Notes under the pieces: model-generated
The model's input: only the letters and a program-made list of their open reading frames with translations
Database searches by the model: none
Told to the model about the DNA's origin: nothing
Assembly: GCA_963769975.1 (NCBI GenBank)
Contig: CAVYNS010000002.1
Location: 280,769 to 344,768, forward strand
DNA from: an uncultured Chloroflexia bacterium
GTDB lineage: Bacteria > Chloroflexota > Dehalococcoidia > GIF9 > AB-539-J10
Direction of reading: 5' to 3'
DNA: 64,000 bases
Part shown: piece by piece, positions 7,990-64,000 of the stretch
How positions within the stretch are numbered: the stretch's first letter is position 1
How the letters are laid out: each line of letters opens with the position of its first letter
Position numbers and translations under genes: made by a program

Positions 7990-8063
7990 CGCGCCTAGAG
8001 GGATTCGAACCCACGACCCCCGGTTCCGAAGACCGGTGCTCTTGTCCGCTGAGCTATAGGCGC
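7990..8063 (-). tRNA. tRNA-Arg (anticodon TCG)
   Basis: Manual cloverleaf: acceptor GCGCCTA/TAGGCGC, anticodon stem ccggt/accgg with loop cTTCGga, T-arm GGTTCGAATCC and discriminator G. Confidence 0.8.
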
Positions 8064-8075
8064 AAAAATAAATTG

Positions 8076-8150
8076 GGGTGAACGGTGGGATTTGAACCCA
8101 CGATCTCCAGGGCCACAACCTGGCGCCTTAACCACTGGGCTACGCTCACC
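8076..8150 (-). tRNA. tRNA-His (anticodon GTG)
   Basis: Manual cloverleaf: acceptor GGTGAGC/GTTCACC, anticodon stem ccagg/cctgg with loop ttGTGgc, T-arm GGTTCAAATCC and discriminator C. Confidence 0.8.
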
Positions 8151-43842: not shown

Positions 43843-45207
43843 TTACTTTTTGTAACCCTGCTGTGAATGGAGTTGCTCTTTGATTTCCGCAATTTGGTTA
43901 GAAAAGCTGGGATTAATGCTCAGTTCGTTAGCTATCTTTTCGTAGCCATGAAGAATTGTGGCATGATTTCTGCCACCTAATTCTTTACCGATCTCGGTTA
44001 GAGAGCAGTTATATCCTTCGCGCATAAGATAGATGGCCACGTGGCGTGCCAGAGCGGTTTTTCTATCTCTTTTCTTGTTAATTAGCTCTTCTGGCGGAAT
44101 GCTGAAATAGTTTGCTACCGTCCGTAAGAGCAGCTTTATGTCTTGTTTACAGGTCATGTTTGTTAATAACTTGTTGATTGTTTCGGGAGCGATATTGGTG
44201 CCACTTAATTTAGCCTGGGCAGTTAGATATACAAGGGCACCTTCAAGCTGGCGGACATTCTCGCATACTTTCTCCGCGACAATAGGCAAAACCCCTTCGA
44301 GTTCTGGAGTCATCATTGTTTCTGCTTTAGCCCGTAGAATATTCAGGCGTGTTTCAAAGTCGGGTGGTTGCAAGTCAACAACAAGGCCCTCTTCAAAGCG
44401 TGATTTTAGCTTGCTGCTAAGAGGATGTATGTCTTGGGGAGCGCAATCAGCGGTGATGACAATTTGCCGGTTATTGCTGTATAGCTCGTTGAAGGTATAG
44501 AAGAAACATTGTAAGGTTTGTCTCTTGTCGATCAGGAAATGGATATCGTCGAATAAAAAGATATGGATATTTCTGAATTTGCTGCGAAACTTGTCAACTT
44601 GGTTTTCTCTCACAGCTAGTACGAATTCATTGGCGAATTGTTCCGCGGTAATATAGGCCGCTTGCAGCCCGTTGTTTGTCGTTAACTGCCCGATGGCATG
44701 TAGTAAATGAGTCTTACCTTGCCCGGTGCTGCTGTGAATGAAAAGGGGGTTATAACTAATTCCGGGATTCTCAGCTACTTCTACAGCGGCAGCATAAGCT
44801 AAACGGTTAGAATCGCTGACAACGAAGTTATCAAAGGTATACTTTGGATTGAATCTATACTGCGTGGCTCTGCTGCTTGTCCCGCCATCGGTTTGAGTAG
44901 CCAAAGGGCTGGCTGATAATTGTTCGCGATTGTGGATCTCGAACCGGACGTCGATATCCTTGCCTATAATATCAACTAAGGTTTTCCTTACCAGAGGATA
45001 AAGGCGTTTGGATAGCCATTCGGCGACGAAAACGTTAGGCACGCCGACGACAAATATATTATCGTGGCAGCTTAGCCCCTGGCTATCGTTAAGCCAAGTT
45101 GTGTAATTTGCCTTACTAACCTGAATCTGCAGCTTGCCGAGGGCACTCTGCCAAATTTCTTTTGCTGATTCCAATCTATCCCCATTCCCAACAAAACTCA
45201 GCCACAA
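43843..45207 (-). CDS. dnaA: Chromosomal replication initiator DnaA
   Basis: AAA+ Walker A (GQGKTHLLHAIG) and the C-terminal DNA-binding domain (RKTALARHVAIYLMRE). Confidence 0.95.
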   Translation of the reverse strand: MWLSFVGNGDRLESAKEIWQSALGKLQIQVSKANYTTWLNDSQGLSCHDNIFVVGVPNVFVAEWLSKRLYPLVRKTLVDIIGKDIDVRFEIHNREQLSASPLATQTDGGTSSRATQYRFNPKYTFDNFVVSDSNRLAYAAAVEVAENPGISYNPLFIHSSTGQGKTHLLHAIGQLTTNNGLQAAYITAEQFANEFVLAVRENQVDKFRSKFRNIHIFLFDDIHFLIDKRQTLQCFFYTFNELYSNNRQIVITADCAPQDIHPLSSKLKSRFEEGLVVDLQPPDFETRLNILRAKAETMMTPELEGVLPIVAEKVCENVRQLEGALVYLTAQAKLSGTNIAPETINKLLTNMTCKQDIKLLLRTVANYFSIPPEELINKKRDRKTALARHVAIYLMREGYNCSLTEIGKELGGRNHATILHGYEKIANELSINPSFSNQIAEIKEQLHSQQGYKK

Positions 45208-45305
45208 CGATAGCTGAAAAACGTATTAAGGGTGGTTAAGATTTAAGAACTTACCAGTTGTTACTCCTTACAGGATAACAGGTTTTCCCAAACCTTCGCT
45301 AGGCA

Positions 45306-50137: not shown

Positions 50138-50800
50138 TTAATGGGCTTTGAATACCAAAGCACCAACGGGGCAAACGGCAACGCACTCGCTACAGTCCTG
50201 ACAACAGGACCTACCCATAGGCTCATCTCCAAAAGTAGTGACCATCCTCCGGAAGCCACGGTGAGCAAAACCAATGGTTCCTTTGCCCAGTTTTTCCTGG
50301 CATACCCAGACGCACCTGCCGCAGAGTACACATTTGTTAGGATCATAAATGAACAGGGGACTGCTAGAATCTATGGGTAACTCAGGCAGGATTTTCCTGA
50401 ACCTTTTTGTTTTGAGCTTCACGTTGAAATGCTTGGCTAGTTGCTGAAGTTCACAGGAACCATTTTTGAGACAATGGGCGCAATCTACAGGATGACTAGC
50501 CAGGAGCAATTCCAAAGCGGTGCGGGCTAGCCTCAAGGCCTTGGCCCCTTTGGTATTAACTACCATTCCCTCTGCTACCGGAGTAGTACAGGCTGTAACT
50601 GGGTTATCCTTACCTTCTATCTCCACAAAGCAGAGACGGCAAGAAGCAAAAGGCTCGCTCTTTTCCCGAATAGCACAAAGGTTGGGGATGTAGATGCCAT
50701 TATTCAGAGCTACCCACAGGACCTTCTCACCTGGGGCAGCTCCTATTTTCTTACCATCTATCGTCAGAGAGACGTTTTTAACCTTTACCAGTACCCTCCC
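50138..50800 (-). CDS. NuoG/FdhA N-terminal-like iron-sulfur protein with a 2Fe-2S ferredoxin domain and a 4Fe-4S domain. The start codon is unresolved.
   Basis: The track ORF (50138..50626, GTG start) already begins inside the motif CRLCFVEIEG..ACTTPV. The same frame stays open up to the fhs stop at 50813-50815. That stretch encodes the conserved upstream part (VLVKVKNVSLTIDGKKIGAAPGEKVLWVALNNGIYIPNLCAIREKSEPFAS) but contains no ATG, GTG or TTG. A GGGGGAGG RBS lies at 50789-50796. Confidence 0.55.
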   Translation of the reverse strand, partial: GRVLVKVKNVSLTIDGKKIGAAPGEKVLWVALNNGIYIPNLCAIREKSEPFASCRLCFVEIEGKDNPVTACTTPVAEGMVVNTKGAKALRLARTALELLLASHPVDCAHCLKNGSCELQQLAKHFNVKLKTKRFRKILPELPIDSSSPLFIYDPNKCVLCGRCVWVCQEKLGKGTIGFAHRGFRRMVTTFGDEPMGRSCCQDCSECVAVCPVGALVFKAH

Positions 50801-50812
50801 CCTTACAACATC

Positions 50813-52573
50813 TTAGAACAGCCCCTGTACTTTGCCAGTCTTGGTATCAATATCTATCCTTCTAAAGGCTGGATCAGAGCTGGTGCCCGGCATCAAGCTG
50901 ATGGTGCCGGCGCAAGGACAAAGGAATTTGGCACCGGAGTAAATCAACACATCACGAATGGGCAGCATCCATCCCTTGGGAGTGCCCTTAATGGCCGGAT
51001 CGTGTGTTAAGCTCAGGTGAGTCTTCACCATCATAGTGGCGTATTCATCATATTTCTTATCTGCTTCAAATGCCTTGGCCTTGGCTTCAGCTTCAGGCGC
51101 CCAGGACACACCATCAGCACCGTAAACAACCTTGGCGATTTTGTCCACTCTGTCGCGTAACTTCATTTCATTGGGATAAAGGAATTTGAAGTCACTCTTC
51201 TGGTTGCAGGCTTCCATCGCAGCATCGGCTAACTCTAGTGCTCCATCGCCACCCTTGAGCCAGTGTTCGCTGAAAGCGCAGCGTGCCCCGGCCGCCTCGG
51301 CTGCCTTGCGCACCAGGGCGACCTCAGCCTTAGTATCTGTATGAAAGGAGTTGATGCACACCACCGGGTTAATGCCTGCCGTTTTGATGGTATTGATATG
51401 GTGCACCAGGTTGGCAAGCCCTTTCTCCAGGGTCTTCAAATCTTCTTTGGTGTAAGCATCAGGTAGTGGCAGTCCAGCTACAACCTTGGGGCCACCGCCA
51501 TGCATCTTTAATGCCCTGATGGTGGCAACCAGTATTGACACGTGTGGTTTGAGGCCGCTGTAGCGGCATTTGACATTCCAGAACTTCTCAAAGCCAATGT
51601 CAGCAGCAAAGCCGCTTTCAGTGACAACGTAGTCAGCCATCTTGAGGGCGATGCGATCGGCGATGATGGAGTTTTGGCCGACAGCGATATTGGCGAAGGG
51701 GCCGGCATGCACAAGGCAGGGTTGATACTCTGCGGTGCTGCACAAGGTGGGGTTAATGGCATTGCGCATAAAGGCAGTCATAGCGCCACCGACTTCAAGG
51801 TCACCGGTGGTAACCGGGTTACCCTTCTTATCATAGGCGACGGTGATCTCGTTCATTCTCTTACGCAGGTCTGCTAAGTCATTGACTATGGCGAGCATAG
51901 CCATGATCTCGGAGCTTACCGCGATACCGAATTTGGACTGCATCAGAAAGCCGTCCATCTTACCACCGAGGCCGATGATGATATTCCTCAGGCTCTGGGC
52001 ACAGAAGTCCATAATCCAGCCCATTTCTACTCTGGTCGGGTCCACATCCAGCCGGCGTAAGTTACGTTTGGCTAGTTCGGCGTCATCGTAGTTGCGCTCG
52101 TGCTGCATTCTAGCGGTAAGCGCTACCATGGCCAAGTTATGCGCATTCATAACGTCGTTGATGTCGCCGGTAAGTCCCATGGAGAATTCGGTCATCGGGA
52201 TAAGCAGCGCATTGCCGCCGCCGGCAGCCGTTCCCTTGATATTCATGGTGGGACCGCCCGAAGGCTGGCGAATGCAACCCATCACATTCTGCTTCCGTTT
52301 GCCCAGACCCTCCACCAGACCCATCAGGGTGGTTGTTTTGCCCTCGCCCAGTGGTGTGGGAGTAATAGCGGTCACTTCAATATACTTGCCATCTGGCTTC
52401 TTCTTGAGGCGCTCGATGATCTTTAAGAAATCCAGTTTGCTTATTCTCGCATAGGGAATAACCTCGTCCTTTTGCAGTCCCAGTTTCTTTTGCCACTCCT
52501 CGGGGGTGGGCATGTTTTTTTCCGCTTCCTCTGCAATCTCCCAGTCCTTCATTTTTGTTGCATCGTAAGCCAT
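50813..52573 (-). CDS. fhs: Formate--tetrahydrofolate ligase
   Basis: [11 protein letters not shown]-loop and a ...GLF C-terminus. Confidence 0.95.
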
Positions 52574-52603: not shown

Positions 52604-53533
52604 TTATTTCTTCTTGCGCTCGGCTCTTCTCTCAGCCGCTACTACAGTGTTGACCAAAAGCATGGTAACAGTCATAGGCCCAAGTCCACCGGGGACAGGA
52701 GTAATCGCCTCAGCCTTCTCCTTTACAGGTTCGAAATCTATGTCCCCCACAGTCCTTTTTCCTGTTTTACTTGTTGGGTCATCAATCCAATTAGAACCAA
52801 AATCCATGGCAATCACGCCCTGCTTTACCATGTCGGCGGTGAGAAACTTTGGCTTATTTACGGAAACCACCACTACATCGGCTCGACGAGTATAGGAGGA
52901 TAGATTCCGCGTGGAGGGTTGGCAAAGAGTGACATTAGCCCCTACTTTCTCTTGAGCCAATATCGAGGCTAGAGGTTTCCCTACAAGATTATCCACATTC
53001 ACAATCACAACCTCCTTGTCTTTAAGGTTGCTATATCGATACCGAACTAGCATCTCCCAGATACCGGTTGGCGTTGCCGGAAGAAACGCTTCTTGCCCCA
53101 TCCAGGCCTTGCCCACATTCACAGGGTGAAATCCATCCACGTCTTTCTCTGGGAGAACAGCATTTAATGCTTTGTTTTCATCTAAATGTCCGGGGAGGGG
53201 GAGCTGAATAAAAATGCCGTGGATTTTAGGGTCCTCATTGAGACGCTCAATTTCCTTGAGCAAATCTTCTTGTTTCGTATTCTGGGGTAATCTCACCATC
53301 CTTGAACTGATGCCCAGCTCCTCGCTTGCCTTTTCTTTAAGCCCGATATAGGATGCCGAGCCTGGGTCTTCGCCAACAAGGATGCCAGCAAGCCCGGGAG
53401 TTATTCCCTTTTCCTTAAGCCTGGCTACCCTTTCTTTCAGCTCCTCTCTTATTTCCGTGGATAATTTCTTTCCATCAAGTATATTACCTGGCATATCAAC
53501 ACCTCCCAGAAGATTTGTGGGCTCACCGGCCAA
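52604..53533 (-). CDS. folD: Bifunctional 5,10-methylene-THF dehydrogenase/cyclohydrolase FolD, downstream paralog
   Basis: ILVGEDPGSASY..HGIFIQLPLP and C-terminal PVPGGLGPMT motifs. Confidence 0.9.
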   Translation of the reverse strand: MAGEPTNLLGGVDMPGNILDGKKLSTEIREELKERVARLKEKGITPGLAGILVGEDPGSASYIGLKEKASEELGISSRMVRLPQNTKQEDLLKEIERLNEDPKIHGIFIQLPLPGHLDENKALNAVLPEKDVDGFHPVNVGKAWMGQEAFLPATPTGIWEMLVRYRYSNLKDKEVVIVNVDNLVGKPLASILAQEKVGANVTLCQPSTRNLSSYTRRADVVVVSVNKPKFLTADMVKQGVIAMDFGSNWIDDPTSKTGKRTVGDIDFEPVKEKAEAITPVPGGLGPMTVTMLLVNTVVAAERRAERKKK

Positions 53534-54407
53534 CCATCTTCTCAGCGGCTCTTACAGTATTAGCTACCAGCAATGCTGAAGTCACTGGACCAGTGCCACC
53601 GGGGACAGGAGTTATCGCCCCTGCCTTCTCCTTCACTGCCTCGAAGTCCACATCCCCGACCAGCTTGAACTTTCCTGGATTTGCCGGGTCCTCTATTTGG
53701 TTCACTCCCACATCCACCACTATCGCCCCTTTTTTCACCATATCTGCGGTAATAGCCTTAGCCTTCCCCATAGCCGCCACCAGAATATCTGCTTGCTTGG
53801 CGATTGAGGCAAGGTCCTTGGTTCCAGTATGGCAGACAGTTACAGTGGCATTAGCGCCCTTCTGCTTTTGGACCAGAATACCCATCAACGGTTTCCCTAC
53901 TATGTTGCTCCGCCCGCAGATAACCACATGTTTGCCCTCAGGATTATGTCCACTGCGAACCAGCAGTTCCTGAACACCGTAGGGAGTTGAGGGGAAGAAG
54001 GTCTCTTCACCCAGCAGCAATTTCCCGGTGTTTACCGGGTTGGTGCCGTCAACATCCTTGTCAGGAGAGATGGCGCTCTCCGCGCTGAGAGTATTAAGAT
54101 GCTTGGGCAAGGGCAGCTGAAGGATAATACCGTGGCATTTAGGATCCTTATTGAGCTCTCCAATTTTTCTTTCCAGTTCCTCTTGGGCGACATTTTCCGG
54201 AAGTTTAACCGTATCAGTCAGTATTCCCACAGCTTCGCAGCCCTTGGCAATGCCACGAAGATAGGATAACGCAGCAGGGTCTTCCCCAACCAGAATGGCC
54301 ACGAGCTTTGGAGTCACCCCTTTTCCCTTCAATTTCTCTACCCTTTGTTTTAACTCCACACGAATGTCGTCCGCGATTTTCCTTCCGTCTATTATCTCTG
54401 CTGGCAT
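53523..54407 (-). CDS. folD: Bifunctional 5,10-methylene-THF dehydrogenase/cyclohydrolase FolD, upstream paralog
   Basis: ILVGEDPAALSY..HGIILQLPLP and PVPGGTGPVT. About 45% identical to the neighbouring copy. Confidence 0.9.
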   Translation of the reverse strand: MPAEIIDGRKIADDIRVELKQRVEKLKGKGVTPKLVAILVGEDPAALSYLRGIAKGCEAVGILTDTVKLPENVAQEELERKIGELNKDPKCHGIILQLPLPKHLNTLSAESAISPDKDVDGTNPVNTGKLLLGEETFFPSTPYGVQELLVRSGHNPEGKHVVICGRSNIVGKPLMGILVQKQKGANATVTVCHTGTKDLASIAKQADILVAAMGKAKAITADMVKKGAIVVDVGVNQIEDPANPGKFKLVGDVDFEAVKEKAGAITPVPGGTGPVTSALLVANTVRAAEKMVGR

Positions 54408-54428: not shown

Positions 54429-55256
54429 TTAACTTACCGGTTTACCGATAAGTTCTGGCTTTACAGCACTAAGGTGTGCTGCAATATCCTGCACTCGACT
54501 GATGACCTCTGGACTGGAATTCATGAGAGGAAAATTGCCCAGACCAGCTTCTATTATACTCTGGTCGTAGGGAATAAAGCCCAGAAATTCAAAATCGGGC
54601 ATGGCGGAAATAAGAAATTTTCTGTCCTGTTCACTGCGAATTTTATTAGCGACCACCGCGATGTTTTTCAAACCTATGTCCTTTGCCAGTTCTCTTATCC
54701 TGTAGGCTGTTTCAACACTTCCTTTACCTGGCTCCACTACAATGATCATCTTGTCCACAGCTCTCGCTGTCGCCCGCCCCAGATGCTCGACCCCGGCCTC
54801 CATATCTATTATGACTACTTCATCTCTCCGCAGGAGTATGTGGGCAATTAAAGCTTCTAGTAAGGCATTTTCAGGGCAATAACAACCACTCCCACCCTTC
54901 TTCAATCTCCCCATCACCATTAATTTGATTCCATTATGCTCCACCCAATACTTTCCAGGTATATCATCAACTCTGGGGTTTAATTTGAAGTAAGAAGCTG
55001 CCTGGCCAGGACGTGCTCCGGTCCTCTCTTCAATCAGGTCTGCCATCTCAGATATAGGGGTTATCCTTTCGGGATGAGGAAAGCCGAGGGCAGTTGCCAG
55101 AGTAGCATTGGGGTCGGCATCTATAGCCAGAACAGAGTAACCAGACTGGGTAAGTGTAGTAGAAAGGATAGAGGCCAACATTGTTTTGCCCACCCCTCCT
55201 TTCCCGCTAATGGCAAGTTTCATTCCCAAACGACGAATTATATCCTGCAGCAACAA
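54429..55256 (-). CDS. cooC: CooC/AcsF-family P-loop ATPase (CO dehydrogenase/ACS nickel-insertion accessory protein, MinD-like)
   Basis: MKLAISGKGGVGKT deviant Walker A and MinD/ParA fold. The internal start at 55223 is more typical of the family. Confidence 0.75.
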   Translation of the reverse strand: MLLQDIIRRLGMKLAISGKGGVGKTMLASILSTTLTQSGYSVLAIDADPNATLATALGFPHPERITPISEMADLIEERTGARPGQAASYFKLNPRVDDIPGKYWVEHNGIKLMVMGRLKKGGSGCYCPENALLEALIAHILLRRDEVVIIDMEAGVEHLGRATARAVDKMIIVVEPGKGSVETAYRIRELAKDIGLKNIAVVANKIRSEQDRKFLISAMPDFEFLGFIPYDQSIIEAGLGNFPLMNSSPEVISRVQDIAAHLSAVKPELIGKPVS

Positions 55257-58205: not shown

Positions 58206-58369
58206 TTGACAAGATAATACGGATTTGCTATTATATATAATAGCCATTGACCTTTGAGGCAGTGAGCTAAAGAACTGGATAGTTAAAAGTCCGCTTGGAT
58301 CGGCGGTGACCGAGACGGACAACAGGAGTTGTTGTGATAACCCTCTCGGTTATGTCGAGAGGGTTTTTT
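58206..58369 (+). ncRNA. Candidate cis-regulatory leader RNA (pan-motif-like riboswitch candidate) with its own promoter and an intrinsic terminator that sequesters the downstream SD
   Basis: TTGACA (58206-58211), a 17-nt spacer and TATTAT (58229-58234). About 100 nt of structured non-coding sequence follows. The terminator hairpin ccctctcg-gttatgt-cgagaggg plus TTTTTT (58341-58369) ends 5 nt before the ATG of the first gene of the pan operon. The 3' arm GAGAGGG is the only SD-like sequence. Confidence 0.45.
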
Positions 58370-58374
58370 AGTTT

Positions 58375-59343
58375 ATGGTTATGTACGGCGCTATAACGGA
58401 TGTTCCAGGAATTAAGGTCGGGCATTATACCGATAAGAAGGCAGTGACAGGCTGCACGGTAATACTTTGTGAGCCAGGGGCTGTGGCTGGCGTCGATGTC
58501 AGTGGCTCATCGCCGGGGACCAGGGAAACAGACCTGCTCCGACCGGGAAATTTAGTGGAAAGGGTTCAAGCTATCATTTTTAGTGGAGGCAGCGCCTTTG
58601 GCCTGGATGCTGCTACCGGGGTTATGAGGTATTTGGAGGAGCGAGGATTTGGTTATGAGACTAGCGCCGGGAGGGTGCCTATTGTGCCAGCCGCCATTAT
58701 TTTCGACCTGAATATAGGTGATTCTAAAATCAGGCCCGGAGCTAACGAAGGCTATCAAGCTTGCCAGGCTGCTATTAATGGCAAAGTAGCTGAGGGGTGC
58801 GTTGGCGCAGGCACCGGGGCCACAGTGGGCAAAATTCTCGGCGTAGAAAGGGCGGTTAAAAGTGGTTTGGGGACTGCCAGTCAAAAAATAGCCAGAGATG
58901 TTGTGGTAGCTGCCTTGGTGGTGGTAAATGCCGTTGGAGATGTGCTTGAACCGGGAACGGGGAAAATTCTGGCGGGACCTCGCAAGCCGGATGGAAGTGG
59001 GTTCTTATCTACATCCGAGTTATGGAAAGGCGACTTTAAGGAAGCAGTTCCACCTTTTAATACCGTAATCGGTGTAGTGGCTACCGATGCCAAACTTAGT
59101 AAAACAGAAGCAAACAAATTGGCCCACGTGGCACAGGTTGGCATTGCTCGCACTATTGACCCATGCCATACCATGTACGATGGCGATGCTTTATTCGCTC
59201 TTTCTTTAGGTGAAAAGGCAGCCGACATTAGTGCTCTGGGGGCAGCGGCTGCTGAGGTTGTCGCTGAAGCCATAGTTAGAGCAATTCAAAAGGCGGAAAC
59301 TTTAGCTGGTGTGCCAGCGGCTAAGGACATAAACAAATGTTAA
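58375..59343 (+). CDS. Peptidase S58 (DmpA/BapA family, Ntn-hydrolase aminopeptidase)
   Basis: GIKVGHYTD...GCTVIL N-terminus and a conserved Ser/Thr nucleophile region. The stop overlaps the next gene by 7 nt. Confidence 0.75.
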   Translation: MVMYGAITDVPGIKVGHYTDKKAVTGCTVILCEPGAVAGVDVSGSSPGTRETDLLRPGNLVERVQAIIFSGGSAFGLDAATGVMRYLEERGFGYETSAGRVPIVPAAIIFDLNIGDSKIRPGANEGYQACQAAINGKVAEGCVGAGTGATVGKILGVERAVKSGLGTASQKIARDVVVAALVVVNAVGDVLEPGTGKILAGPRKPDGSGFLSTSELWKGDFKEAVPPFNTVIGVVATDAKLSKTEANKLAHVAQVGIARTIDPCHTMYDGDALFALSLGEKAADISALGAAAAEVVAEAIVRAIQKAETLAGVPAAKDINKC

Positions 59344-60235: not shown

Positions 60236-60646
60236 ATGAGAACTATGCTGAAAAGTAAAATCCACCGAGCCCGGGTTACTCAAGTCGATTTGGATTATGA
60301 AGGCAGTATCACTATTGACCGGTCCCTCATGGAAGCCAGCGACATCTTGCCCTTCGAAAGGGTAGAGGTACTAAACGTTAACAATGGCGCCAGGTTCAGC
60401 ACTTACGCTATCGAAGGTGAGGCGAATTCGGGGATTATTGGTGTAAATGGTGCTGCCGCCAGACTGGTGGCCAAGGGCGACATAGTTATCATCCTATCGT
60501 ATTGCCAGGTTTCTGATGATGAGGCAATCGGCATAACCCCCAGCATAGTTCGTGTGGACAGTCAAAACAGGATTGTTGAGCCTTTGCCTATGGTTCCTCA
60601 ATGGGAAAAAATTCAGGAGTCAGTAGCCACTATGGGTGACCTTTGA
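60236..60646 (+). CDS. panD: Aspartate 1-decarboxylase (pyruvoyl-dependent)
   Basis: [25 protein letters not shown], with the processing site at ...GS. Confidence 0.9.
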
Positions 60647-60695
60647 TTGCTAACTTCTGACTACTGAATTCCGACTACTCTCTTAGGAGGCGACA

Positions 60696-61532
60696 ATGCG
60701 AGTTACTATTACTGAGATAAAAGAGATGAAGCAAAAGAAAGAAAAGATACCTATGCTTACCGCTTATGACTATGTGACGGCCAAGATAGTTGATGAGGCT
60801 GGTGTGCCTTTGATATTGGTTGGGGATAGCTTAGGGAACGTGATATTGGGCTATGAGTCAACTATCCCGGTGACTATGGAGGAGATGCTTCATCATACCA
60901 AAGCTGTAGTGAGAGGAGCTAAGAAGGCCTTAATAATAGGCGATATGCCGTTTATGACTTATCATATCAGCGTCTCCGATGCTTTACATAATGCAGCAAG
61001 GTTTATTCAGGAAGGAGGGACACAGGGGGTGAAGTTGGAGGGGGGCGAAGTCGTTGCTGAGAAAGTCAGACGCCTTGTTGACTGTGGCATCCCAGTCATG
61101 GGACATATTGGGCTTACTCCACAATCCATACATCAGTTGGGAGGGTTTAAGGTACAGGGTAAGGTGGTGGAAGTAGCCAAAAAGTTGCTTAACGATGCTC
61201 GTATTCTGGAGGAAGCTGGCGCTTTTGCTGTCGTTCTGGAATGCATACCAGCCCCTCTTTCCAAGCTAATTACTCAAAAGCTGGCTATCCCCACGATTGG
61301 CATCGGCGCCGGACCCGATTGCGATGGTCAAGTCTTGGTAATCAGCGATATGCTGGGTCTTTATACCGAGTTCGTGCCCAAGCATGTCAAGCAATATGCC
61401 AGGTTAGCCGGAGAAATTAAAACTGCTGTTTCTAATTACATATCTGAAGTTAAATCTCGTAGCTTCCCCGCTAACGAGCAGAGCTATACTATGGATGAGA
61501 GCCTCGTCAAACAGCTAAAAGCCGAAAGCTAG
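60696..61532 (+). CDS. panB: 3-methyl-2-oxobutanoate hydroxymethyltransferase
   Basis: LTAYDY..LVGDSLG and other PanB motifs. Confidence 0.9.
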   Translation: MRVTITEIKEMKQKKEKIPMLTAYDYVTAKIVDEAGVPLILVGDSLGNVILGYESTIPVTMEEMLHHTKAVVRGAKKALIIGDMPFMTYHISVSDALHNAARFIQEGGTQGVKLEGGEVVAEKVRRLVDCGIPVMGHIGLTPQSIHQLGGFKVQGKVVEVAKKLLNDARILEEAGAFAVVLECIPAPLSKLITQKLAIPTIGIGAGPDCDGQVLVISDMLGLYTEFVPKHVKQYARLAGEIKTAVSNYISEVKSRSFPANEQSYTMDESLVKQLKAES

Positions 61533-61538
61533 CGGTGT

Positions 61539-62372
61539 ATGCAGGTAGTAAAGACCATACCCGAGATAAGGGCGTTAAGGCAGAAACTCAGTGGCACGGT
61601 GGGCTTCGTTCCCACTATGGGCTATCTTCACGAAGGTCATCTGGCTTTAGTAAAGCAGGCCAGGATAGAAAACTCCACCGTTATCGTCAGCATTTATGTT
61701 AACCCCACCCAATTTGGTCCCAGGGAGGATTTTGGCGACTATCCCCGGGACCTCGATCGTGACCTGGAGCTGTTGCGGAAAGGAGGGGCGGATATCGTCC
61801 TTGTCCCCTCCGATGAAGAGATGTACCCACCTGAATCTAGTAGCTGGGTGGATGTGGAGAAGGTGACCGAGCGACTTGAGGGAGCAGCTCGTCCAGGTCA
61901 TTTCAGGGGCGTAGCCACGGTAGTGGCCAAGCTGTTCAACATTGTCCAGCCATCACGAGCTTACTTCGGGCAGAAAGATGCCCAGCAGGTGGTGGTCATT
62001 AAGAGAATGGTGGCTGACCTCAACATGGGGGTGGAGATCGTGGTTGTGCCTACGGTCAGGGAGAGCGATGGTCTGGCTATGAGCAGTCGCAATGTTTACC
62101 TCAGTTCTAAAGGGCGCCAGGCAGCCACAATATTGTTCAAGGCCCTTACGTTGGCTCGGCAATTAAAGAGGAGTGGGGAAAAAGATGCTGAAAAGATTCG
62201 CCGGCAAATGATCACACTTATCCAGAAAGAACCTCTGGCTCAAATTGACTATGTCAGCATTGCTGATGCCGAAACACTAGAAGAATTGAACTTGCTCGAC
62301 CGCCCGGCCGTGGCTTCCTTAGCCGTCAGGATAGGTAAAACGCGGTTGATAGATAACCTGCCTCTAGAATAA
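61539..62372 (+). CDS. panC: Pantoate--beta-alanine ligase
   Basis: PTMGYLHEGHLALV (HIGH-like) and the KMSKS-like region. Confidence 0.9.
   Translation: MQVVKTIPEIRALRQKLSGTVGFVPTMGYLHEGHLALVKQARIENSTVIVSIYVNPTQFGPREDFGDYPRDLDRDLELLRKGGADIVLVPSDEEMYPPESSSWVDVEKVTERLEGAARPGHFRGVATVVAKLFNIVQPSRAYFGQKDAQQVVVIKRMVADLNMGVEIVVVPTVRESDGLAMSSRNVYLSSKGRQAATILFKALTLARQLKRSGEKDAEKIRRQMITLIQKEPLAQIDYVSIADAETLEELNLLDRPAVASLAVRIGKTRLIDNLPLE

Positions 62373-63399: not shown

Positions 63400-64000
<601 letters not shown>

Follow-up and report, generated by a model that had tools for sequence, protein, structure and literature searches.

A conserved CTG as the probable start codon of a HoxU-like iron-sulfur protein gene downstream of fhs in Dehalococcoidia

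The window analysed here is the whole stretch of 64,000 nucleotides (nt) from contig CAVYNS010000002.1 of an uncultured member of the Dehalococcoidia, and its minus strand carries a gene for a HoxU-like iron-sulfur (Fe-S) protein immediately downstream of fhs. The fhs gene ends at a TAA codon (50815-50813) and the frame stays open past this stop, as the minus-strand translation of 50830-50138 reads ...VQGLF* and then DVVRGRVLVKVKNVSLTIDGKKIGAAPGEKVLWVALNNGIYIPNLCAIREKSEPFASCRLCFVEIEG... The codons which follow the TAA are GAT GTT GTA AGG GGG AGG GTA CTG GTA AAG GTT AAA AAC GTC TCT CTG ACG ATA GAT GGT..., and the first in-frame ATG, GTG or TTG after the stop is the GTG at 50626-50624, which gives an open reading frame (ORF) of 50138..50626. 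This GTG is codon 56 (Val56) counted from the CTG at 50791-50789 and lies between Cys54 and Cys68 of the motif C-x11-C-x2-C-x13-C. A first-pass annotation had described a NuoG-like 2Fe-2S/4Fe-4S gene which continues in the open frame beyond the fhs stop, has no ATG, GTG or TTG before the GTG at 50626 and has that GTG inside its 2Fe-2S cysteine motif. The sequence bears out each of these points: translation gives the peptide that was quoted, and the Pfam domains score above their gathering thresholds. Comparison with related loci indicates that this is probably an intact and functional 217-codon gene for an iron-sulfur electron-transfer protein of the HoxU/NuoG-N-terminal type, and that its translation most likely starts at the near-cognate CTG at 50791-50789 to give a 217-amino-acid (aa) product.

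The domain content of the protein extends well upstream of the GTG. The Pfam domain Fer2_4 covers residues 12-88 of the extended frame with 77.4 bits against a cut-off of 22.8, and it begins about 50 codons upstream of GTG 50626. NADH-G_4Fe-4S_3 (50.0 bits versus a gathering score of 27) and Fer4_Nqo3 (31.3 bits versus 27) follow, and the order Fer2_4, NADH-G_4Fe-4S_3, Fer4_Nqo3 is that of the HoxU/NuoG-N-terminal Fe-S module. The ligand motifs C-x11-C-x2-C-x13-C, H-x3-C-x2-C-x5-C and two copies of CxxCxxCxxxC are present, and the ligands for one 2Fe-2S and three 4Fe-4S clusters are complete in the 217-codon frame. This full set requires a translation start upstream of Cys39, which a start at GTG 50626 does not provide. 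The best NCBIfam and PDB matches are to the Fe-S module of the group A6 [FeFe] hydrogenase HydA (8a6t, 7p5h), FdsA (6tg9), NuoG and HoxU (5xf9). In structural alignments, residue 4 of HydA1 (8a6t) corresponds to V14 of the extended frame and residue 3 of HydA (7p5h) to L16. Strand beta-1 is formed by VSLTIDG, and the structural homologs carry only two or three residues before it, which requires a start upstream of about 50773.

HoxU of the diaphorase of bidirectional NiFe hydrogenases and the N-terminal modules of HydA, FdsA and NuoG share both the domain order and the cluster ligands of this protein, which like HoxU stands alone at about 220-240 aa. The gene described here differs from hoxU in that it follows folD-folD-fhs, and its product scores 184.3 bits against the HoxU equivalog NCBIfam NF005745, below the curated cut-off of 333. 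No hoxE, hoxF, hoxY, hoxH, hydrogenase or formate dehydrogenase gene is adjacent, a statement which covers the immediate neighbours and no other part of the window. The protein is named HoxU-like, rather than HoxU, because it falls below the equivalog cut-off and has no hydrogenase or diaphorase neighbours.

The start-less leader of the HoxU-like ORF spans 62 codons and is the longest among the 52 long ORFs of the window. By itself the run is unremarkable, since by our own arithmetic 62 random codons lack ATG, GTG and TTG with a chance of about 5%. Among the long ORFs checked in the window, however, the HoxU-like ORF is the sole case of a Pfam domain which reaches upstream of the first canonical start, and it is this observation together with the length of the leader that leads us to take the leader as real. 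Six other ORFs of the window have start-less leaders of 13-47 codons, and their Pfam domains, where found, begin after the canonical start. A loose use of start codons throughout the genome was rejected on these grounds, and the oddity is gene-specific as far as the window shows.

Homologs of the protein number in the thousands. The nearest of them, from Dehalococcoidia, are 217-222 aa long and have N-termini such as M[KR]VLVKVKSVSLTIDG, MVKVKS... and LAKTKTVSL..., and a tail of ortholog versions of 202-212 aa starts inside the domain. In more distant orthologs an ATG three codons downstream of the position of the window CTG serves as the start and gives MK.VSLTIDG. Orthologs do not begin at the equivalent of 50626, a possibility raised by the first-pass annotation; their annotated N-termini read M[KR]VLVKVKSVSLTIDG... 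or MK.VSLTIDG...

To compare loci, codons were counted from the invariant YIPNLC anchor with the window CTG as position 0, and a locus was called start-less if ATG, GTG and TTG are all absent from the stretch that runs from the upstream in-frame stop to codon +7. The samples were the window plus 80 species-representative genomes and 65 distinct metagenome loci, from which 74 non-redundant start-less loci were pooled, and a clade set of 115 distinct loci with at least 74% identity. The genome set contains 25 start-less loci, 22 of which have CTG at position 0, while 49 of the 65 metagenome loci are start-less and all 49 have CTG there. Throughout the 74 pooled loci the 215-codon ORF is intact and position 0 is CTG. 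These loci contain 69 codon columns that are invariant in amino acid and degenerate in the code, and position 0 is the only one of them that is also invariant in codon; synonymous variants occur in every one of the 11 other invariant Leu columns. Because the definition of a start-less locus removes TTG at position 0, the invariance of the third position is the only unbiased test among these.

Within the clade set, position 0 is CTG in 97 loci, TTG in eight, ATG in four, GTG in two and another codon in four. Thus NTG, where N is any nucleotide, accounts for 111 of the 115 loci, with canonical starts in 14, and CTA, CTC, CTT and TTA do not occur. Twenty other Leu columns have NTG shares of 1-93% (47% overall). 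Outgroup relatives have ATG or TTG at position 0, and a plausible history is one in which ATG or TTG gave way to CTG at a fixed start position.

The onset of coding constraint points to the same codon. Among start-less loci, the ratio of nonsynonymous to synonymous substitution rates (dN/dS) is 0.09 for the whole gene, 0.14 for codons +1 to +12 and 1.09 for codons -7 to -1, and the ORFs are still intact at a synonymous divergence (dS) of about 0.8 among start-less lineages. The corresponding polymorphism ratio (pN/pS) in the 74 loci is 0.20 at +1 to +55, 0.14 in the rest of the gene and 1.27 at -8 to -5, with values of 0.31-0.44 at codons +1 to +7 that indicate purifying selection. The 55 codons upstream of GTG 50626 appear to be translated, given their pN/pS of 0.20. 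The distance from AAGGGG to CTG is 12, 13, 14 or 15 nt depending on the locus, and TAA or TGA stands five codons upstream of the CTG in four species (L010, L013, L014 and L017); the stretch upstream of the CTG is therefore not read in frame. These patterns make position 0, as judged by comparison of sequences, the first codon on which coding constraint acts. At -1 the loci have GTA or ATA and no other synonymous Val codon, and the Val, Lys, Ser, Leu and Thr codons downstream vary freely at the third position. In the 74 loci, the two nucleotides directly before the CTG (window 50792-50793, minus strand), T(-2) and A(-1), show 99-100% conservation though the stretch to which they belong appears to be non-coding.

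A ribosome-binding site at the head of the frame had been noted in the first-pass annotation, and the element quoted there, GGGGGAGG, is found at 50804-50795. Its AAGGGGG register lies 6 nt from the CTG and requires one G-U pair. Twenty other genes of the window with GGAGG-type Shine-Dalgarno (SD) sequences have aligned spacings of 5 (seven genes), 6 (four), 7 (three) and 8 nt (two), with a few longer and a mode of 5-6, so that in the AAGGGGG register the predicted SD element stands at a functional spacing for the CTG. Two of its positions, G(-9) and A(-6), are conserved in about 100% of the 74 loci, and among the 22 start-less genome loci 14 have a top-scoring SD register which precedes the CTG by 5-8 nt.

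It is possible that translation begins at another non-canonical codon nearby, the candidates being the CTG at 50767-50765 (+8), the ATA at 50761-50759 (+10), the GTA at -1 or +1 and the AAG at +2, but this is unlikely. The GTA at +1 has GGAGG at a distance of 6 nt, yet this codon varies among GTA, GCA, GCG and GGA. Some orthologs are annotated as M/L-TIDG, which corresponds to a start at +8, but codon +8 is CTA, TTA, CTC or TTT in many start-less loci. ATA, like ATT, is a known rare start; the ATA at +10 has no SD nearby, however, and a start there would delete strand beta-1. None of these alternative codons is nucleotide-invariant, and purifying selection acts on codons +1 to +7. Upstream of the CTG, an ATA at codon -5 is in frame in many relatives and was rejected as the start, as this codon is TAA or TGA in the four species named above. 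A GTG at -3 or an ATG at -5 was likewise rejected as the start of the family, since each is found in a minority of relatives only; the GTG at -3 may simply be part of an AGGTGA SD sequence 8 nt before the CTG. Alternatively, only the truncated 162-aa protein from GTG 50626 could be made, as the annotation by gene callers has it, or the gene could be decaying. Either is very unlikely: of the four 2Fe-2S cysteines the truncated protein loses three (Cys39, Cys51 and Cys54), the GTG lacks a preceding SD, the 55 codons upstream of it are constrained, and all 74 start-less lineages retain an intact ORF despite the synonymous divergence among them.

The remaining explanations had been offered by the first-pass annotation beside a rare start codon, which it ranked first. 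Read-through of the fhs TAA would produce a fusion of Fhs with the HoxU-like protein, and the fhs stop is indeed in frame with the gene in the window and in L001, L022, L082 and L083. These five cases are close relatives which differ by a single 3-nt indel, and neither the frame nor the constraint continues in other loci. L028, with its 20-nt spacer, has the fhs stop in another frame, and most relatives have spacers of roughly 79 nt with in-frame stops 5-21 codons upstream. Moreover, the linker codons show no coding constraint (pN/pS of about 1.1-1.3 upstream of the CTG), and the spacer carries the SD. Read-through is thus highly improbable. A sequencing or assembly error which hides a normal start might be suspected from the G5 homopolymer in the spacer and from the GTG that some orthologs have in place of the GGG of the window. 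An indel in the G run does not bring any start into frame, however, and the only upstream ATG and TTG (50811-50806) run straight into a TAA at 50805-50803. Such an error is excluded because the start-less architecture recurs in 74 non-redundant loci from many projects and because the identical 763 nt are found in two other public assemblies. The comparative evidence favors the rare start. The CTG given as an example in the first-pass annotation was placed at 50783-50785, which reads AAG, and the codon intended is the one at 50789-50791.

Initiation at the CTG of position 0 also has several points to answer. CUG initiates at about 1-2% of the level of AUG in Escherichia coli, with a range of 0.02-3% (10.1101/063800). 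GGAGG, the strongest Watson-Crick register of the SD, stands at an unusually short distance of 3 nt from the CTG, and in eight of the 22 start-less genome loci crude SD scoring favors a neighbouring purine run, with the AAGGGG element still present. The loci are related, so their counts are not independent events, and a TTG at position 0 was kept out of the start-less set by definition. The CTG is also retained in relatives which have GTG at -3 or ATG at -5, and part of its conservation could be inheritance. Finally, four of the 115 clade loci have no NTG at position 0, and three of these (L024, L036 and L042) have no canonical start at all. In the region of position 0, L024 (2977-3003) has CCG, L036 (2970-3010) has AGG then CTA, and L042 (2977-3010) has TGT with an ATA two codons later. 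These three loci may have other rare starts or may contain sequence or assembly errors.

If translation starts at the CTG, the CUG at 50791-50789 would be read as formylmethionine and the product would begin (M)VKVKNVSLTIDG, with initiation directed by the SD element AAGGGGGAGG (50804-50795). The weak CUG may keep the Fe-S protein far below Fhs. A scan of the minus strand of the fhs-to-gene spacer for promoters and terminators gave no promoter-like or terminator-like site, and since no such signal separates the two genes, we infer that a low ratio of Fe-S protein to Fhs would be set by the weak codon. Partial occlusion of the SD and the position of the fhs stop 21 nt upstream may also lower the yield.

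Conserved CUG starts are already known in bacteria, and the HoxU-like gene would add a well-populated example of this rare phenomenon. In Deinococcus, rpsL has a conserved CTG start with support from mass spectrometry (PMC2830850, Baudet et al. 2010), and Deide_03051 is another gene with a CTG start (PMC2830850). Like the HoxU-like gene, rpsL of Deinococcus-Thermus is a housekeeping-type gene without a canonical start whose CTG is kept across relatives, and the Deinococcus CTG starts were likewise recognised since conserved elements of the fold would otherwise be missing. The two cases differ in that the Deinococcus starts are backed by mass spectrometry and the HoxU-like start by sequence comparison alone. 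They also involve other gene families and phyla, the present one belonging to the Dehalococcoidia, and orthologs of the HoxU-like gene show ATG, TTG or GTG at the same codon. A literature search returned no paper joining 'CTG start codon' and Dehalococcoides. A further parallel is provided by infC, which encodes initiation factor 3 (IF3) and starts with AUU or AUA as part of an autoregulatory loop through IF3's own discrimination of start codons. The infC gene is likewise one in which a conserved weak near-cognate start reduces translation of one specific gene, but no autoregulatory logic is apparent for the Fe-S protein, and the codon is CUG instead of AUU.

It is conceivable, though doubtful, that the CUG start is part of a conserved translational attenuator or switch which comprises the invariant UA before the CUG, a helix between the SD and codons +6 to +8 (UYUCUYU) and, in most relatives, an adjacent hairpin. 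If so, the Fe-S protein would be held at a small and possibly regulated fraction of Fhs, and the structure could be opened by ribosomes as they complete fhs or by a trans-acting factor. In 76 distinct loci, 94.4% of the cells of the SD/UCUCUCU pairing are paired, and slid registers do not exceed 74%. Double changes occur at two pairs, and the observed values are attained by two of 500 shuffles. Minimum-free-energy folds include the helix in 62 of the 76 loci, but it is weak, with -6.0 kcal/mol in the window and a mean of -2.5. A fold of 121 nt is not significant (z = -0.56). At pair -7/+20 the counts are G-C 10, A-U 18, G-U 12 and A-C 5, for which our own arithmetic gives a chi-square of about 2.9, and because this association is not significant the SD-occluding helix stays tentative. 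Chance pairing arises easily between purine-rich and pyrimidine-rich runs.

The spacer itself differs among relatives. Most of them (for example L003:2917-3000 and L004:2922-3000) have an fhs-to-gene spacer of about 79 nt which is conserved across many species and can form a hairpin with an anti-SD-like arm, TTCTCTCCC, an SD-like arm, GGGAGAGAA, and compensatory UA-to-CG changes; the hairpin has no Rfam match. This spacer has been lost in the window and in L001, L022, L028, L082 and L083, whose spacers are 18-21 nt. When the window and 12 related loci were scanned with Rfam at gathering thresholds, the spacer between fhs and the HoxU-like gene matched no known RNA family. The window also has a mini-ORF, ATG TTG TAA (50803-50811, minus strand), between the fhs stop and the CTG, where it overlaps the SD. 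A bare ATG TAA occupies its place in L001 and L082, and neither form occurs in L022 or L028. The mini-ORF was considered as a coupling device and rejected, as it is not conserved in the latter two loci.

Standard gene callers accept only ATG, GTG and TTG, and the gene is therefore truncated in databases or left as a gap. Truncated versions of 162-167 aa, corresponding to window 50138-50626, are held in NCBI, ENA and JGI (proteins P0121, P0123, P0126-P0128 and P0134). In L161 and L162, gene callers leave an unannotated gap of 186 nt after fhs. A CTG start would explain why annotations lose the first 55 residues, and the truncated entries mislead domain-based metabolic reconstruction of Dehalococcoidia with Wood-Ljungdahl-type one-carbon (C1) genes. 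The loci also offer a natural data set of considerable size on a bacterial CUG start, in which about 100 lineages have the same codon as CTG, TTG, ATG or GTG and which should be useful for training start-site predictors. The data set poses the question why a weak start persists on an electron-transfer protein apparently co-transcribed with an abundant enzyme.

Coordinates of the features at the fhs/HoxU-like junction of the window
Feature	Position	Strand	Basis
TAA stop codon of fhs (formate--tetrahydrofolate ligase, ORF 50813-52573)	50813..50815	-	translation, NCBIfam NF010032
21-nt fhs-to-CTG spacer GATGTTGTAAGGGGGAGGGTA, apparently non-coding though in frame with fhs	50792..50812	-	pN/pS, variable length
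Predicted Shine-Dalgarno element AAGGGGGAGG	50795..50804	-	AAGGGGG 6 nt, GGAGG 3 nt before CTG
Proposed CTG (CUG) initiation codon	50789..50791	-	codon conservation, constraint boundary
Proposed redefined coding sequence, 217 aa + TAA, (M)VKVKNVSLTIDGKK...ALVFKAH	50138..50791	-	HoxU/NuoG-N-terminal-type Fe-S protein
Internal GTG (Val56), probable false start of gene callers, 162-aa product	50624..50626	-	no SD-like sequence upstream
2Fe-2S ferredoxin-type domain (Fer2_4), Cys39, Cys51, Cys54, Cys68	50549..50779	-	Pfam, motif
His-Cys3 4Fe-4S motif (NADH-G_4Fe-4S_3), HPVDCAHCLKNGSC	50417..50524	-	Pfam, motif
Two-cluster ferredoxin-like domain (Fer4_Nqo3), CVLCGRCVWVC + CQDCSECVAVCP	50156..50350	-	Pfam, motif
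UCUCUCU, codons +6 to +8, can pair with SD (50803-50797), CTG in loop; tentative	50766..50772	-	pairing in 76 loci

The fhs product matches NCBIfam NF010032 with 1084 bits against a cut-off of 938. Upstream of the HoxU-like gene lie fhs, two folD paralogs and a gene for a MinD/ParA-type ATPase, and downstream of it is an esterase gene in convergent orientation. The folD paralogs are in tandem (52604-53494 and 53523-54407, minus strand), and the MinD/ParA-type ATPase (54429-55256, minus strand) is CooC-like by eye. The shared strand and short gaps suggest that the ATPase gene, folD-folD-fhs and the HoxU-like gene form a single C1-metabolism operon in which the HoxU-like gene is last, and the gene is probably co-transcribed with folD-folD-fhs. 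The same order, folD-fhs-gene-esterase, is found in L004, and fhs also precedes the gene in many other Dehalococcoidia. More distant orthologs follow a gene whose product has a Cys-rich ...CP.QY.A... tail and is NuoF/HoxF-like as read by eye.

Several other features of the window were recorded. The ORF at 43843-45225 (minus strand), which we take from its translation to be dnaA, offers TTG codons as the only start candidates at its 5' end. The first of them has no SD-like sequence and the second a weak one, and for these reasons the true start of this ORF is uncertain. The Rfam pan motif RF01749 (40.5 bits, gathering score 36.2) is found at 58242-58322 on the plus strand and precedes an ORF at 58375. 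The ORFs in 60236-62372 are presumably panD-, panB- and panC-like, as read from their translations. Two adjacent transfer RNA genes lie at 7990-8149 on the minus strand, and the 5' end of a 23S ribosomal RNA gene occupies 63409-64000 on the plus strand, where it runs off the window.

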